Shown in pieces: positions 6,695 through 46,072 of a stretch of 64,000 nt of DNA (the stretch's first letter is position 1; each line of letters opens with the position of its first letter). This DNA comes from Escherichia phage APECc02: sequence record NC_041869.1; one strand, given 5' to 3'. The position numbers were made by a program, and so were the translations under genes. The notes beneath the pieces are model-generated. The model saw only the letters and a list, made by a program, of their open reading frames with translations, was not told the origin of the DNA and did no database searches.

Positions 6695-6982
6695 TCATAG
6701 TGCCTCTAAGATTTCATATCCTTCGGGTCGGAATACAAGCCACTCCGTGGCTCCGTTTGGTCGATACGCTTTATACAGAACAACCTGATCTCGGCACATG
6801 CACATAGCTACATAGTTTTCATCCACACCTGCAGCCTGCATTGCAGCTTCTTCTCCGGCAACTGCTTTGCTTACAACCTCCTTAGTAGGCAAGTGTGCGA
6901 TCAGCTCGTCACCATCCTTAATTCCAAAATGGCTGAGTTCTCCATTGGTATCTTTAATCTTAATCTTAACCAAATCTTTCAT
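6695..6982 (-). CDS. hypothetical small protein
   Basis: ORF co-oriented. Confidence 0.5.
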   Translation of the reverse strand: MKDLVKIKIKDTNGELSHFGIKDGDELIAHLPTKEVVSKAVAGEEAAMQAAGVDENYVAMCMCRDQVVLYKAYRPNGATEWLVFRPEGYEILEAL

Positions 6983-7311
6983 TAGTCTTCCTCCAGGTTC
7001 AAAGGTCCTAAGATTTCATATGCCAGATTAGAAGTTACCAGAGGGTCTTCTGCATCTTTAGTATTATACCACCCGTGAATAACCAGAGTCCCACTTTGTT
7101 TCATGTCCAACTGTAACTCTTCTGCCGTTTCCTCATCCAGCTCCAAGATTTCCATAAGGTATTTGATGTTAGGAAGGTATGCAGCTGTTACAGTTCCCTC
7201 CACCAAACCTTCGGGCCAACCTACATCTGGATGACAAGTAGGAACCAGGTTGGTCAGCTTAATGGTGTACGCTTTTTCTGCACGAGCCTTCAGTAACGGG
7301 TCAATCTTCAT
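6982..7311 (-). CDS. hypothetical small acidic protein
   Basis: ORF co-oriented, start/stop overlap. Confidence 0.5.
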   Translation of the reverse strand: MKIDPLLKARAEKAYTIKLTNLVPTCHPDVGWPEGLVEGTVTAAYLPNIKYLMEILELDEETAEELQLDMKQSGTLVIHGWYNTKDAEDPLVTSNLAYEILGPLNLEED

Positions 7312-7661
7312 TATTCGTCCTCCTCTTCGGTGCCTGCTTCCAGTAATAAGTTAAGAATATCTTCTGCACAAGGCTCATAGAACTCTTGGCCTTCATTATC
7401 GATGATTTTGTAGTCATCTCCGCGAATAATCAGAGGATCACTCTCAAAATTATCGAGACCTTTAACAACGACAACACGATCGATTGCCATCATTGTAAGA
7501 ACTTTATCGACATCTTCCTCTGCTACACCATACTGCAGCAGAATGTCTTTGGTAGGAGGAACAGCATCCACCACAACACCGTTACCAAAACCTTCCGGTA
7601 AGTTAGCTAAAATATCTTCCGGAACCACACTAACATCAAAACCAGTAATTTCTACTTTCAT
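7311..7661 (-). CDS. hypothetical small acidic protein (MKVEI...)
   Basis: ORF co-oriented. Confidence 0.5.
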   Translation of the reverse strand: MKVEITGFDVSVVPEDILANLPEGFGNGVVVDAVPPTKDILLQYGVAEEDVDKVLTMMAIDRVVVVKGLDNFESDPLIIRGDDYKIIDNEGQEFYEPCAEDILNLLLEAGTEEEDE

Positions 7662-7922
7662 TTACAGCACCTCTTCGTCAACTACTTCATAAAAATGGCC
7701 TGGGATTGCAATAGCGTTCTCACCTTCACCTACAAACACAGTTCCGTCAAGAATCAACATCATAAGAGTTTCTGGAATATCCTCTTCCTGAACGTTGCCA
7801 AAACCTTTAATCAGCTCGTAGGTTGGAAGATTTACCTCTAAGATGTCACCATCTTTAGAGCGGAAATCAACACCATCCTGAATCTCTGCCATTTCAAGGT
7901 TTTTCAGTTTAATCTTCATCAA
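7662..7922 (-). CDS. hypothetical small acidic protein (MMKIKL...EVVDEEVL)
   Basis: ORF co-oriented. Confidence 0.5.
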   Translation of the reverse strand: MMKIKLKNLEMAEIQDGVDFRSKDGDILEVNLPTYELIKGFGNVQEEDIPETLMMLILDGTVFVGEGENAIAIPGHFYEVVDEEVL

Positions 7923-7998: not shown

Positions 7999-8394
7999 TT
8001 ACTGAAACAGTGCGGATAAATTACCTTCTGGTGGGAACTTATCTGCCAAAAACGGTGTTAGCACAGTAGCCTTCTGAAGATCTGGGGTCCACTCGTTGTT
8101 CAGAACATCCCAGTAGTACGCAATGTTGCTGTGTGGGTGCCGCATTACGAACTTTTTCCCTTCGTAGTCATCTGAAACCTCTACAGAAGAAATAACAACA
8201 GAATCTTCAAGGGTTTCTTCATAGAAAGATCCGCCTTCAAATTTCCAACGAGATGCAAGAGCCCCTGCCTTGAACGCTGCAGATAACGGACTGTCGGCAA
8301 GAACATACATTTCTTGCACTCTGTCGCTGCGATCTTTGCTTCTTACGTTGTATACAGTATCTGAGCTATACTCAACACGGTATAGGCTTACCAT
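7999..8394 (-). CDS. family-B protein (HPxS...YW...WTP motif), paralog of 10202-10612
   Basis: shared motif FVMRHPHSNIAYYWD..WTP vs FVIVHPDSRVKHYWN..WTP. Confidence 0.55.
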   Translation of the reverse strand: MVSLYRVEYSSDTVYNVRSKDRSDRVQEMYVLADSPLSAAFKAGALASRWKFEGGSFYEETLEDSVVISSVEVSDDYEGKKFVMRHPHSNIAYYWDVLNNEWTPDLQKATVLTPFLADKFPPEGNLSALFQ

Positions 8395-8726
8395 TACCGC
8401 ACCTCCTCAATAACTTCCACATCTGAACCCACCACAAATGCAAAAGGACAGGTTTCATGAAAGACATCCGGATCGCCGCCAAGCTTGCTAACAATTTCTC
8501 CACCACTAATAAACACAAGCTCACCGATATTCATCAGATTGCTGAAATAGTATCCATAATGATTAAAGAATGCAGCAGGGTCAGGTAGACTAGTGGCCTC
8601 AAGCACTACATCGGTTGAGGTTACTTTCTTATCATAGCCTCTCGCCTTCTGAGATGCAAGATCTGCAGAATCCTCAGGCGACCGGAGATGCACAGGAATT
8701 GTTTCACCAATAAAGCGTACTTTCAT
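8394..8726 (-). CDS. family-A-like small acidic protein (MKVRF...DVEVIEEVR)
   Basis: ATG at 8726 preferred over upstream non-ATG start in track. Confidence 0.5.
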   Translation of the reverse strand: MKVRFIGETIPVHLRSPEDSADLASQKARGYDKKVTSTDVVLEATSLPDPAAFFNHYGYYFSNLMNIGELVFISGGEIVSKLGGDPDVFHETCPFAFVVGSDVEVIEEVR

Positions 8727-8730
8727 ATTA

Positions 8731-8994
8731 TCACCCAACAACCATAGCTTCAAAAGGGGTCATGAACGAATAAACGGCATCATCATCTGCTTCAGGGAAT
8801 GCTCCCAAAGACTTCATGTCTGAGCCCTTGACAAATACAAGGTTTTGATCAAAGGCTTCTTGGGGGTCAATCCGATACATATCTCGTAGGATATCACTTA
8901 CCTCCTCATCAAGAGGTGAGTATGCTGTGCACGTTTTTCCGATCAAGCTTTGAGAATCAGGGTATCCACCTGAAGTTTTAAAATAAACAATCAT
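8731..8994 (-). CDS. family-A small protein (VFVKGSDMKSLGA motif)
   Basis: motif shared with 10613, 10857, 14516 ORFs. Confidence 0.5.
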   Translation of the reverse strand: MIVYFKTSGGYPDSQSLIGKTCTAYSPLDEEVSDILRDMYRIDPQEAFDQNLVFVKGSDMKSLGAFPEADDDAVYSFMTPFEAMVVG

Positions 8995-9085
8995 ATAGTA
9001 TCACCTCTGGTAAGAGATTGGGATTCCTTTCCCACAAATAATTACAAACCTTCCTTGTCGAGGAAGTATGCTAATCCAAGCAGGA

Positions 9086-9355
9086 TTATTCCTCTACAAT
9101 CTCATACACATCCGGAGTTACAATCAACTCTTCTCCGTTACCCGGTGCAACAAACACCACCATTCCTTCAGGTGTGTGCTTTTTAGCCATCTCGATAACA
9201 TCTTCTCGCAGAGCTGGCTCCATCAGATCAAAACCTTCACCAAGGGCATCACGAACCACCTTCATATAGTCAACTGGTTGTGCTTCGACAATCATGCCTT
9301 CAACCAGTCCACAATTTTTGTCTGCCAGCTCAGTTTGGAATAATTTAATTTTCAT
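9086..9355 (-). CDS. hypothetical small acidic protein (MKIKL...YEIVEE)
   Basis: ORF co-oriented. Confidence 0.5.
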   Translation of the reverse strand: MKIKLFQTELADKNCGLVEGMIVEAQPVDYMKVVRDALGEGFDLMEPALREDVIEMAKKHTPEGMVVFVAPGNGEELIVTPDVYEIVEE

Positions 9356-9381
9356 TTAGAGGTCTCCTCAATTATTTGATA

Positions 9382-9483
9382 TTAATAGCCGTAACCTAAC
9401 ACATTAACTACAACTGCGATTGCAAACATAATTTCAAAGCATGCAATCTCTACATTTGGGACTAATTTCTTAATCACACCCAT
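9382..9483 (-). CDS. possible 33-aa hydrophobic peptide
   Basis: short ORF with GAGGTG RBS in a 150-bp gap; below track size cutoff. Confidence 0.25.
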   Translation of the reverse strand: MGVIKKLVPNVEIACFEIMFAIAVVVNVLGYGY

Positions 9484-9505
9484 TGTAGCACCTCATTCTC
9501 CAAAG

Positions 9506-9811
9506 TCAATCTTTACTTTGCCTCTCCCCCTTACCTTTCTTTCTACCGCACTTAGCCAGTTGACGTGCTGCAACATCTACCATACGGTCAGTTGCCTCGT
9601 AAGCATCACTGCCTTTAGCTTTGGCAATAACTTCTTTTCCAGAATTGTCAAAAATGAACGCCATAACTTCCTGGTGATCATTTTCAACTTTTACACTCAC
9701 ACGTGCATAGTTGGCAGAGGGGTGCAAACGCTCCAGCTTAGACATTTTGTTGGAAATGAAAGACACCATACCTTCAGTGATTTCTACGTTGCCAGTGATT
9801 TCAATTTGCAT
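9506..9811 (-). CDS. hpf: ribosome hibernation promoting factor / RaiA (YfiA) family
   Basis: MQIEITGNVEITEG..KLE..VKVE..ARQLAK aligns along its length with bacterial HPF. Confidence 0.8.
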   Translation of the reverse strand: MQIEITGNVEITEGMVSFISNKMSKLERLHPSANYARVSVKVENDHQEVMAFIFDNSGKEVIAKAKGSDAYEATDRMVDVAARQLAKCGRKKGKGERQSKD

Positions 9812-9830
9812 AACGTGTTCCTTTTAAAGA

Positions 9831-9849
9831 AGAGGGGACCAAACCCTCT
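9831..9849 (-). terminator. hairpin (AGAGGG-GACCAAA-CCCTCT)
   Basis: inverted repeat with T-rich flank on minus strand. Confidence 0.4.
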
Positions 9850-9893
9850 TTGAAAACAATGATACTAAATCTGAAGCGTTGTGTCAACAGTTT

Positions 9894-10184
9894 TTACAGA
9901 TTGTTGTCGATAGTTTTTAAAATATCCACAGCAAGATCTGCCATTTTTCGAACATACTCTGCAAACTCAACAGGATCCTTGATCAAAGAATTCACAGGGT
10001 CGTACCCTAGAGCGTTCAAAATGGTTGCAGCATCTACAACCTTCTCATCATTTGCGAAGATCTCTCCGTCAAACTTGTAGGTCCATTTTGAGTCAACCTT
10101 AGCAGAGCAGGGTTTGTCCATGCTTGTTACACCATCGTCTTTAAACTCTCCTGCGTTATCAATATTCAGAACTAAATCCATCAT
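9894..10184 (-). CDS. hypothetical protein
   Basis: ORF co-oriented. Confidence 0.5.
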   Translation of the reverse strand: MMDLVLNIDNAGEFKDDGVTSMDKPCSAKVDSKWTYKFDGEIFANDEKVVDAATILNALGYDPVNSLIKDPVEFAEYVRKMADLAVDILKTIDNNL

Positions 10185-10201
10185 AGTGGCACCTCACTGT
10201 T

Positions 10202-10612
10202 TCAGTTTAGCTTTTCTTCAACAACCCCATAACTTGGGGCAGAGTCAAGAGCTTTCTGGTTTAAAAGTGGTGTAGCAGAATCTGCAAACGGTGTCCAAGT
10301 TTTTGTTCTGGCATTCCAGTAATGCTTCACTCTAGAATCTGGGTGCACTATAACAAAAACTTTTTCACTTGTCAACACATTAATTTCTTCCACACCTTTG
10401 CTGATAATTTCTCCGTCATATCCCCCGGTCTGGTATCCTTCGTACCAGGTTCTTGCATAGGCATAGCCAGCCTGCCAGCATGCAGCCTCCTCCGAGGTGG
10501 AGACTACGTAGAAGTCTTTCTCAAATTCTGGGATACGCCCTTGCTTTACGCTCCAAGCTCCGCGAATTTTCATTGTAACTTTGAACAGTTTATTTTTCAC
10601 AACGGTTACCAA
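10202..10612 (-). CDS. family-B protein, paralog of 7999-8394
   Basis: shared HPxS..YW..WTP..TP(F/L)L motif. Confidence 0.55.
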   Translation of the reverse strand: MVTVVKNKLFKVTMKIRGAWSVKQGRIPEFEKDFYVVSTSEEAACWQAGYAYARTWYEGYQTGGYDGEIISKGVEEINVLTSEKVFVIVHPDSRVKHYWNARTKTWTPFADSATPLLNQKALDSAPSYGVVEEKLN

Positions 10613-10867
10613 TCACAGCTCTACAATATCTGCATCTGACCCTGCCCCAAAGGCATAATAGGACTCTTCCCCGAAATAATATTCCGGTGCACCAGCAGCG
10701 ATCAGGTCTGATCCCAAGATAAACACCACGTTGTGGCCTACATAACTGTGATGTTGCCGCACAGGATCATCCCACGGCAACCCTTCAAAGTATACCGCAG
10801 GAACGACCTTTCCCTTCAGGAAGGATTGTCCCAAGTAGACGTTAGAATCAAGAATTTTAACCTTCAT
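10613..10867 (-). CDS. family-A small protein (MKVKIL...GSDLIAAGA...DIVEL)
   Basis: paralogous to 10857-11084 and 14516-14749. Confidence 0.55.
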   Translation of the reverse strand: MKVKILDSNVYLGQSFLKGKVVPAVYFEGLPWDDPVRQHHSYVGHNVVFILGSDLIAAGAPEYYFGEESYYAFGAGSDADIVEL

Positions 10868-11084
10868 GATCGTCCTCCACTATCTCTACATCCTCACCAA
10901 GGGCAAAGTTGTAGGTCCACTGACTGTCAAAGCAGTCCTGAGATGCACCAGCGGCAATAAGATCTGCACCTTTTATTTTTAAAAGGTCAGGATAATCTTC
11001 GTTAGGGATAGCGGTAAACACTTTCCCCACTAAGGGCTCCTGACCAATATAGAAGCTTGAATCTAAAACTTTAACTTTCATCAA
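10857..11084 (-). CDS. family-A small protein (MMKVKVL...GADLIAAGA...VEIVED)
   Basis: paralog; tandem with 10613-10867. Confidence 0.55.
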   Translation of the reverse strand: MMKVKVLDSSFYIGQEPLVGKVFTAIPNEDYPDLLKIKGADLIAAGASQDCFDSQWTYNFALGEDVEIVEDDHEG

Positions 11085-13985: not shown

Positions 13986-14519
13986 CTACAAATGGTCGCT
14001 GAGGGTGTCAAGAAAATTATCCCGTTCTTTCTCAGAGTTTTCATGTGTGTAGCTGAAAAACATATCGAGAATAACCTTATTGATATATTCCAGCTCCTCT
14101 GTGTTCAGATGCTTAGCAGGATCTACAATGACATCCCAAATATCATACAGACCGCACTCATGATACCCATAACGCCACTCAATTGTCAAGCTGAGCGGCA
14201 AATCTTTACCTTCACAAACAACCTTCCATCTACATATGTTGGTATCTGGTCGTACCTGTGCACGGTACACCTGCACAAAATCCAATTTGAATTTGAGGTA
14301 CTCGTCATACAATTTAAGCACAAAGCTCTCGATTTGTGGAGACACTTTTGCAGCAAACTGTGCGTATTTGTACTTGCACTGGATGATCTTTCTGCGTTTT
14401 GCAGTTAAATTTTTTGCCGCCAGTTGTTCTTCAGTGTATCTCCACCTACGATCAACAAACGCAACAGGGTCTTTGTCCCCATAGAGGTCTTCCCAGTTAA
14501 TCAGAAGCATACCTGTCAC
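13986..14519 (-). CDS. hypothetical protein
   Basis: ORF co-oriented. Confidence 0.5.
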   Translation of the reverse strand: MTGMLLINWEDLYGDKDPVAFVDRRWRYTEEQLAAKNLTAKRRKIIQCKYKYAQFAAKVSPQIESFVLKLYDEYLKFKLDFVQVYRAQVRPDTNICRWKVVCEGKDLPLSLTIEWRYGYHECGLYDIWDVIVDPAKHLNTEELEYINKVILDMFFSYTHENSEKERDNFLDTLSDHL

Positions 14520-14749
14520 TCCTCCACAACTTCAAGGCCTTTACCGCCTCGCTCTGGCAGATTACTTAAAGATAGGTAATACATATAATCAGGAGAGATC
14601 CTGCCAGACTCTGCACCTGCAGCTAGTAAATCCTTCCCTTTAACCAGGACAACATTCTCGTTTGCAGATAGCCGTTTTGCTTCCACAATTTTACCAACAC
14701 AGTCAACCAAGGAAGGGTACCCTAAATCTGTAAGAAATTTAACTTTCAT
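14516..14749 (-). CDS. family-A small protein (MKVKFL...GKDLLAAGA...LEVVEE)
   Basis: paralog of 10613 and 10857 ORFs. Confidence 0.55.
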   Translation of the reverse strand: MKVKFLTDLGYPSLVDCVGKIVEAKRLSANENVVLVKGKDLLAAGAESGRISPDYMYYLSLSNLPERGGKGLEVVEE

Positions 14750-45259: not shown

Positions 45260-45334
45260 GCCCTGTTAGCTTAGTGGATAAAGCAGCGGCCTTCTAAGCC
45301 GTTGACACTGGTTCGAGTCCAGTACGGGGTGCCA
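45260..45334 (+). tRNA. tRNA-Arg (anticodon TCT), CCA encoded
   Basis: cloverleaf folded by hand: 7-bp acceptor, anticodon loop CTTCTAA, GTTCGAGTC T-loop. Confidence 0.75.
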
Positions 45335-45338
45335 AATT

Positions 45339-45425
45339 GGGGAGTTATCCCGTAGAGGTAGCGGTGTAGACTGTAAATCTATTGTCATTGCGACTCGGGT
45401 GGTTCGACTCCACCACTCCCCACCA
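45339..45425 (+). tRNA. tRNA-Tyr (anticodon GTA), long variable arm
   Basis: anticodon arm AGACTGTAAATCT identical to bacterial tRNA-Tyr; acceptor pairs; CCA encoded. Confidence 0.8.
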
Positions 45426-45539
45426 AATTTACATTTTTAAATGCATAAATCATACAGATAATGGCATTGATATTTATCGTCGTTTATACTAGTCACTAAC
45501 TGCTCGAAAATCAGTGTCATTATCAGTATTGTTTATAAA

Positions 45540-45630
45540 TGAGGGTAGGGAGCAATGGTGCTCAAGCGGTCTTGAAAACCGTCCCGTTGAGGATGACTCG
45601 ATGATGGTTCGATTCCATTACCCTCAGCCA
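45540..45630 (+). tRNA. tRNA-Ser (anticodon TGA), long variable arm
   Basis: anticodon loop CTTGAAA, long variable arm, T-loop TTCGATT; 5' boundary uncertain by 1 nt. Confidence 0.65.
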
Positions 45631-45728
45631 TATTGTTGACCTTGTAATTAAGCGAAAGCCGGAAGCAGAACCGGATTATCAAATGTTACAGTCGTCATCG
45701 CCGACTAGCAACATGGTCAACATACTGA

Positions 45729-45825
45729 GCTAGGTAAGCCCTTTGGCAAGGGCGAGGATTTTTAATCCTGAAAATAGACGAGGTAGTCGTTGAATACATA
45801 GGTGGTTCGATTCCATCACCTAGCA
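45729..45825 (+). ncRNA. atypical tRNA-like element (acceptor and T-arm intact; possible TTT anticodon; ~31-nt variable region)
   Basis: GCTAGGT/ACCTAGC acceptor pairing and GGTTCGATTCC T-arm, but non-canonical middle. Confidence 0.3.
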
Positions 45826-45832
45826 CCTTTTT

Positions 45833-45908
45833 GCTGATGTAGCACAATTGGTAGTGCAATTGATTTGTAATCAATAGGTTGCAGGTTCGAGTCCTGCTAT
45901 CAGCACCA
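45833..45908 (+). tRNA. tRNA-Thr (anticodon TGT), CCA encoded
   Basis: acceptor GCTGATG, D-arm GCAC..GTGC, anticodon loop TTTGTAA. Confidence 0.75.
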
Positions 45909-45909
45909 T

Positions 45910-45984
45910 GGCCCTGTAGCTGGAAGGTTCAAGCAAGCGACTCATAATCGCCAGACGGTGGTTCAATTCCACCCAGGGCCACCA
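45910..45984 (+). tRNA. tRNA-Met or Ile2 (anticodon CAT), CCA encoded
   Basis: acceptor GGCCCTG/CAGGGCC, anticodon loop CTCATAA. Confidence 0.75.
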
Positions 45985-45995
45985 AATAATAAATA

Positions 45996-46072
45996 CTCCG
46001 CGTAGCTCAGCTTGGTAGAGCGCCTGATTTGGGATCAGGAGGTCGAGTGTTCGAATCACTCCGTGGAGACCA
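45996..46072 (+). tRNA. tRNA-Pro (anticodon TGG), CCA encoded
   Basis: canonical D-arm TAGCTCAGCTTGGTAGAGC, anticodon loop TTTGGGA. Confidence 0.75.

Follow-up and report, generated by a model that had tools for sequence, protein, structure and literature searches.

Within a 64,000-nucleotide stretch of the genome of Escherichia phage APECc02 (record NC_041869.1; this whole stretch is called the window here, and coordinates are positions in it unless another sequence is named), two loci on the minus strand carry the same succession of small genes, two of a family called A followed by one of a family called B. An initial annotation had read these loci as a segmentally duplicated A-A-B cassette under diversifying selection, and the locus therefore raises the question of what these genes are, how the repeated order arose and what their products may do. 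Our analysis points to A and B as old paralogous families of small accessory proteins that are kept by purifying selection and would act as independent small host-directed binders, a reading to which we assign a probability of about 0.55.

The window comes from a Vequintavirus, an rV5-like myophage of E. coli. More than 100 deposited Vequintavirus genomes (among them rV5, FFH2 and the BASEL phages AlexBoehm and RudolfGeigy) match the 6-kb stretch around the two loci at 97-98.5% identity, and in these GenBank records nearly all genes of the stretch are labelled 'hypothetical protein', the sole exception being a ribosome hibernation factor gene. GC skew and the layout of open reading frames (ORFs) delimit a single long minus-strand block of small genes that runs from about 4.9 kb to 41 kb. 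The rV5 genome paper describes the small-gene block as one long transcription unit with sigma70-type promoters, and paralogs or duplications go unmentioned in it (PMC3606486). Our literature searches on early-gene or anti-defence work in rV5 and Vequintavirus returned nothing relevant.

All six ORFs that had been assigned to the two loci are present on the minus strand where they had been placed. The original list was incomplete, since it overlooked both a fifth family A gene further along the block and an adjoining third family of acidic paralogs, described at the end. The genes under study are as follows; A1, A2 and B1 are called module 1, and A3, A4 and B2 module 2.

A1, 8731..8994, minus strand: 87 aa, acidic, isoelectric point (pI) 4.05; divergent family A protein with an insertion between predicted strands 2 and 3
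A2, 8394..8726, minus strand: 110 aa, acidic; most divergent member of family A, with large insertions
B1, 7999..8394, minus strand: 131 aa, pI 4.7; family B
A3, 10857..11081, minus strand: 74 aa, pI 4.05; family A
A4, 10613..10867, minus strand: 84 aa; family A, nearest paralog A3
B2, 10202..10612, minus strand: 132-136 aa, near-neutral charge; family B, start at TTG 10612 or GTG 10600
A5, 14516..14749, minus strand: 77 aa; fifth family A copy, absent from the original list

The net charge is -6 to -10 for A1-A4 and B1, and A5 and B2 are near neutral.

Membership of the two families

Family membership was examined by all-against-all blastp of 33 ORFs of the gene block, by matches to PHROG families and by hidden Markov models (HMMs) searched against the 380 window ORFs of at least 45 aa. 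These approaches agree that B1 and B2 are paralogs, as had been claimed. The two proteins are 28% identical over 119 aa (expect value, E, 7e-10), phrog_7379 matches both over their full length (B1 at 2.1e-66, residues 1-131; B2 at 4.9e-74, residues 6-136), and an HMM made from the B1 lineage alone recovered B2 at 2.7e-13 and nothing else. The family B proteins, of which the window holds two copies, are about 130 aa long and have the conserved core F-V-x-x-H-P-x-S...Y-W...W-T-P. This core of the shared motif first proposed is confirmed by the alignment; its 'TP(F/L)L' part is not, being off register by a few residues. When 1.84 billion representative proteins were searched exhaustively with the B profile using HMMER, four real clusters were obtained, corresponding to B1, B2, the B1-like protein P0045 and the B2-like protein P0047, along with three repetitive false positives. 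Judged from these sequences, family B appears to be confined to rV5-like phages.

For family A the evidence is clear for some members and remote for others. A3 and A4 are 41% identical (blastp E 1e-14), and A5 matches A3 at 6e-7 and A1 at 2e-3, while A2 finds A3 at 1.3e-4 and A1 finds A4 at 0.014. Full-length matches to phrog_5009 were seen for A3 (2.5e-38), A4 (4.7e-32) and A5 (8.3e-36). A1 belongs to phrog_13920 and has a weak phrog_5009 match (1.2e-4); A2 belongs to phrog_13661 and has no phrog_5009 match. To avoid circularity, A1 and A2 were excluded when the family A HMM was constructed from A3, A4, A5 and related sequences, and its sole extra matches in the window were A2 (7.9e-6) and A1 (2.9e-5). 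The proposed paralogy thus holds clearly for A3/A4 and, at a level of about 1e-5, also for A1 and A2, which are remote members of family A outside phrog_5009 itself. The motifs MKVK(I/V/F)L and DL(I/L)AAGA, which had been attributed to the family as a whole, are borne out in A3, A4 and A5, and A1 and A2 fit them only loosely. Because the independent HMMs match only the proposed members, we conclude that both families are real.

The PHROG families already unite B1 with B2 (phrog_7379) and A3, A4 and A5 with one another (phrog_5009), so that the clustering of these orphan families is in that respect known, but they place A1 and A2 in separate families and give all of these families as of unknown function. 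The present analysis adds to this by connecting A1 and A2 with the A core, by identifying a fifth copy and a predicted fold, and by testing selection, gene order and distribution among clades. Two further relationships were tried and rejected: the 177-aa gene after A5 was ruled out as a cryptic B (hhalign probability 0.2%), and profile comparison did not support B as a relative of A or of the third family, C. A segment of the gene after B2 (9894-10184), VDSKWTYKFDGE, is similar to FDSQWTYNFALGE in A3; at the DNA level, 10070-10096 in this gene and 10904-10930 in A3 form a 27-nt repeat of 78% identity. The gene after B2 could be what is left of a further A copy.

Selection on the A and B genes

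The ratio of nonsynonymous to synonymous substitution rates (dN/dS) was determined for each gene against its ortholog in three genomes at rising distance (AlexBoehm, S127 BCL3 and an IMG/VR contig; L009 and L012 included), with the following results.

B1: dN/dS 0.03-0.04
B2: dN/dS 0.04-0.05
A1, A3 and A5: dN/dS about 0.06-0.07
A2: dN/dS 0.065-0.07
A4: dN/dS 0.10-0.12

The values for the A and B genes do not exceed those of neighbouring genes, and few genes of the region are as constrained as B1 and B2. In the 117 records with a B1 gene, identity of the encoded protein is never below 97.7%. The A and B genes are therefore under purifying and not diversifying selection, and the diversifying selection suggested by the initial annotation is not supported by a dN/dS that stays within 0.03-0.12 in the genus, is not raised relative to neighbours and, for B1, goes with near-invariance in 117 genomes. 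Since all copies are fixed and under strongly purifying selection, each paralog appears to have its own maintained job.

Gene order and duplication history

In a block of about 45 genes, both B genes stand directly after two A genes. The probability that A-A-B occurs twice by chance is about 3e-5 for a random gene order and about 1e-3 when the A pairs are kept as blocks, which shows that the repeated order is non-random. Because the order goes beyond chance, some A-B unit was probably duplicated. The duplication of an entire A-A-B block is another matter. A block duplication would be expected to pair A1 with A3 and A2 with A4, and this pairing was not seen in the A tree, where A3 and A4 are nearest relatives of each other (41-49% identity), A5 groups with a prophage homolog, and A1 and A2 lie on long branches with 21-34% identity to all other A copies. 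Between the modules no DNA similarity was detected (best blastn E 0.11), and a search for flanking repeats found just short repeats at chance level. The segmental duplication originally proposed is thus not supported, the A copies being unpaired by position and the DNA retaining no similarity.

We consider it most likely that an ancient A-B unit was duplicated, giving rise to the repeated A-A-B order. Separate tandem duplications of A would then have followed, of which A3/A4 would be the clearest and youngest, and all copies would subsequently have been fixed and held under strong purifying selection.

The two modules are tightly packed. Module 1 begins with a hairpin at 9066-9050, followed by A1, a 4-nt gap, A2 and B1, the stop codon of A2 and the start codon of B1 overlapping as TAATG. 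The 76-nt spacer after B1 holds a sigma70-like promoter site (TTGACA-17-AATAAT, 7980-7952) ahead of the next genes. Module 2 is embedded in a longer run of genes: the A3 ATG at 11081, which is a more likely start than the TTG at 11084, overlaps the stop of the gene upstream, the A4 ATG lies inside A3 so that the two genes overlap by 11 nt, and B2 abuts A4, starting immediately after the A4 stop codon. In the AlexBoehm GenBank record B2 is started at the internal ATG corresponding to 10573 (L001 7702-8073; 123 aa), which removes the N-terminal strand L(Y/F)(K/R)(V/I) located upstream of it. As this strand is conserved in the alignment of all four B lineages, we place the B2 start at TTG 10612 or GTG 10600 and not at ATG 10573; from the sequence, the choice between the first two appears ambiguous. 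Inside the B2 coding sequence, on the minus strand at 10375-10347, there is also a sequence close to the sigma70 promoter consensus (TTGACA-17-TATAGT plus an upstream TG, matching at 11 of 12 positions).

Related phages and natural variants

A check of copy number in related phages, as had been recommended, shows that the number of A and B genes varies between clades. The three related clades carry the following sets.

Window/rV5 clade: five A genes; B1 and B2; ribosome hibernation factor (HPF) gene present
L005-L007 clade: one-to-one orthologs of all five A genes; a B1-like gene only, the B2 slot being occupied by an unrelated basic 96-aa protein
L008, L013-L016 clade: A5 only; one B2-like gene, about 4 kb from A5 and adjoining no A; A1-A4, B1 and the HPF gene lacking

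A5 is the sole A copy kept in all three clades, and it is also the A protein closest to the temperate-phage homologs. A B2-like gene without an adjacent A was found in the five contigs of one clade. Since A3-A4 occur without B2 and a B2-like gene occurs without an adjacent A, A and B are separable.

Family A extends beyond these phages. In mEp021-type temperate phages one copy is present, located between the genes for the Q antiterminator and the holin. Among 5,426 complete E. coli genomes, 35 have prophages with a family A gene, which PGAP labels as hypothetical in every case. A5 is 46% identical to the prophage protein P0037, and mEp021_40 and the homologous prophage genes resemble A5 at 41-49% identity; they differ from the window genes in being single-copy, without a B and situated in a late, Q-dependent region, and they too are annotated as hypothetical. 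An HMM search of the loci around A5 and around the temperate-phage and prophage A copies found no B gene. We also asked whether other genes of the prophage Q-to-holin block are common to the window phage, and this was rejected, the A gene alone being held in common. The co-occurrence and adjacency of A and B that would be expected of an obligate pair are thus not kept in relatives, whether in the L005 clade, the L008/L013-L016 clade or the prophages.

Natural variants within the genus were found at module 2. In L017 and L018 (3001-3213) a 70-aa chimera of A3 and A4 is joined at the DLIAAGA motif, and at this junction the A3 and A4 genes have a common 23-nt stretch of 83% identity. In one assembled relative (L019 3001-3324) B2 is disrupted, its C-terminus being fused to the downstream gene. 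Both chimeras show unequal recombination with deletion within the gene block. Together, the clade comparison, the A3/A4 chimera and the disrupted B2 provide a set of natural variants hinting at which deletions are likely to be tolerated.

Predicted structures

The AlphaFold2 model of A3, made from a 20-sequence alignment, has a mean predicted local distance difference test score (pLDDT) of 91.6 and consists of five short strands with a short helix at GADLIAAGA; the paralog-specific insertions of family A fall between strands 2 and 3. Family A is therefore confidently predicted to be a mostly acidic, five-stranded small beta-barrel of about 75 aa, with a conserved G-x-(D/E)-L-x-x-x-G-A turn or helix and a variable insertion site. 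The B1 model, of moderate confidence (pLDDT 80), shows a long hairpin, a helix and then a sheet, and family B is predicted to be an alpha/beta protein.

Foldseek searches of the PDB gave nothing significant for either model. The best hits of the A3 model were SH3-like and ribosomal small barrels (KOW-like barrels such as ribosomal L21e and L24, and SH3 domains), which are alike in their five short strands and compact barrel, but the matches are non-significant (E at least 0.8, template modelling (TM) score 0.38-0.48). In BFVD, numerous small phage proteins that are as yet uncharacterised matched the A3 model (TM 0.6-0.83), among them the A1 ortholog of phage CM1 (TM 0.80). Such proteins of the T4-like phages Merlin, RB49 and Sf20, and also of CS01 and VpV262, resemble family A in predicted fold (TM 0.67-0.83, Foldseek probability 0.99-1.00) and in length, but their sequence identity to family A is only 14-28%, so that kinship is indicated by predicted structure only. 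Sequence-profile searches of the PDB with A and B returned nothing below E 0.1. Homology to structural or housekeeping proteins, which would have spoken against orphan families of this kind, was thus not found in Pfam, NCBIfam, PHROG, PDB sequence or fold searches.

Possible functions

An accessory, host-binding role fits these genes because they are small and mostly acidic, lie in the early block, are dispensable in sister clades and are conserved where present. Independent action is favoured over an A-B complex because A and B occur without each other. We therefore favour old paralogous families of accessory proteins, in which A and B would be small binding proteins acting on host components during infection, independently and with no obligate complex between them; the A barrel would serve as a reusable scaffold whose paralogs bind different targets.

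Several observations weigh against this reading. A1, A2 and B1 occur together in two clades and are jointly absent from the third (a small sample), and because they come and go together a functional link within module 1 is possible. The late, Q-dependent position of the prophage A copy is a misfit with a strictly early takeover function, so that early takeover is not the whole story for family A. Early expression of the A and B genes in the window phage is predicted from gene position and consensus promoters only. Scans of A and B against Pfam, NCBIfam and PHROG yielded no named function. The data would also be compatible with one duplication of A-A-B and later gene conversion between A3 and A4, since some 70 aligned residues underlie the A tree and its A1 and A2 branches are long.

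Each B gene immediately follows two A genes, and the stop and start codons overlap or abut. This arrangement, together with the joint presence and absence of A1, A2 and B1, could alternatively mean that A and B are partners: A would bind, chaperone or neutralise the product of the B gene that follows it, and the two would have been duplicated together as one functional unit. We regard this as unlikely, given the five contigs with a B2-like gene and no adjacent A, the unrelated gene in the B2 slot after A3-A4, the failure of the HMM search to find a B near A5 or the temperate-phage A copies, and the disrupted B2. Rather improbable is the scenario of the initial annotation, a block-duplicated A-A-B cassette of anti-defence or host-takeover effectors driven apart by arms-race diversifying selection: the proteins are indeed small, mostly acidic orphans in an early block, the order is repeated, clades differ in copy number and natural chimeras are found, but the low dN/dS, the strong constraint on B1 and B2, the near-invariance of B1 in 117 genomes and the lack of positional pairing among the A copies all speak against it, as does the reported restriction sensitivity of this phage group (PMC8594841), which makes an effective Ocr-like function unlikely. 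The strong purifying selection and the presence of the genes in essentially all deposited Vequintavirus genomes could also reflect a core phage function that is not host-directed, for example as an accessory of replication, transcription or assembly. This seems very unlikely, as sister clades lack A1-A4 and one or other B gene, no similarity to any structural or enzymatic family was seen, and family A also occurs in unrelated temperate phages, there as a solitary gene. Finally, the low identity of A1 and A2 to the other A copies (21-34%), in proteins that are short and acidic, might suggest that the similarity is a matter of chance or composition and that some of the ORFs are not genes; the chance of this is negligible, because the independent HMMs pick out only the proposed members among 380 ORFs, PHROG memberships agree, A1 has a structural match and dN/dS is far below 1 for every gene.

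A role of A and B as host-takeover or anti-defence effectors is nevertheless conceivable. T7 Ocr, T7 Gp2 and T4 Arn are small acidic early phage inhibitors. A1-A4 are like them in small size, net negative charge and early-gene position, but families A and B have no sequence or fold similarity to solved structures, and A5 and B2 are not acidic. A DNA mimic of the Ocr/ArdA type is disfavoured: no Pfam, PDB sequence-profile or PDB fold match was obtained, and the Vequintavirinae are reported to be 'exceptionally susceptible' to restriction-modification (PMC8594841), which makes anti-restriction activity like that of Ocr unlikely. More speculatively, family A may represent a widespread, unrecognised beta-barrel inhibitor scaffold, found in rV5-like, T4-like and mEp021-type phages and directed against host factors or defence, in which the five rV5 paralogs would have different targets and B would be a lineage-specific effector with a His/Ser/Trp pocket. 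We put this idea forward as a tentative one, doubtful at present; if the A barrel were such a general inhibitor scaffold, this would matter for both anti-defence and host-takeover biology.

The overall result is modest and descriptive. What the initial annotation observed holds for the most part, with small gaps; its evolutionary and selective reading is in large part mistaken. Large lytic phages carry dozens of small early orphan genes each, and arrays of paralogs among them are common and little studied. For one such array, the analysis provides a definition of two families (five A, two B), a confident fold prediction for A, and copies that appear to be old and individually maintained.

Neighbouring features

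Module 1 is flanked by the third paralogous family, C, whose small proteins are strongly acidic (net charge -5 to -22), begin with MKIKL and end in a YE(I/V)(V/L)EE tail. Membership is clear for four of them; the one at 6982-7311 is a weak fifth (E 2e-6). A relationship of family C to family A was ruled out (hhalign probability 3%). The features between and around the modules are listed below.

6695-6982, minus strand: family C
6982-7311, minus strand: family C, weak member
7311-7661, minus strand: family C
7662-7919, minus strand: family C
9086-9355, minus strand: family C
9506-9811, minus strand: ribosome hibernation factor (HPF/RaiA), lying between the two modules; PF02482 detected on the L005 ortholog

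The HPF gene lies downstream of a sigma70-like promoter at 9887-9859 and is missing from the L008 clade. Two genes of relatives were also noted. In L005, a gene of the P22_Y8K6 family (PF27050; 8467-8763) directly follows the B1-like gene, a position at which the window has nothing, and in L008, a 139-kb metagenomic relative, a gene of the TnpB/IS605 OrfB type (PF01385 and PF07282; 11532-12644) is inserted in the early block.

Among the deposited records, eighteen GenBank entries named 'Campylobacter phage' (MG0656xx) share 95-98% identity with the E. coli rV5-like sequence studied here, and their host label looks doubtful. Elsewhere in the window, ARAGORN detected a cluster of seven tRNAs at 45260-46072, one of which (45729-45827) has a four-base anticodon (atcc) and no assigned type.

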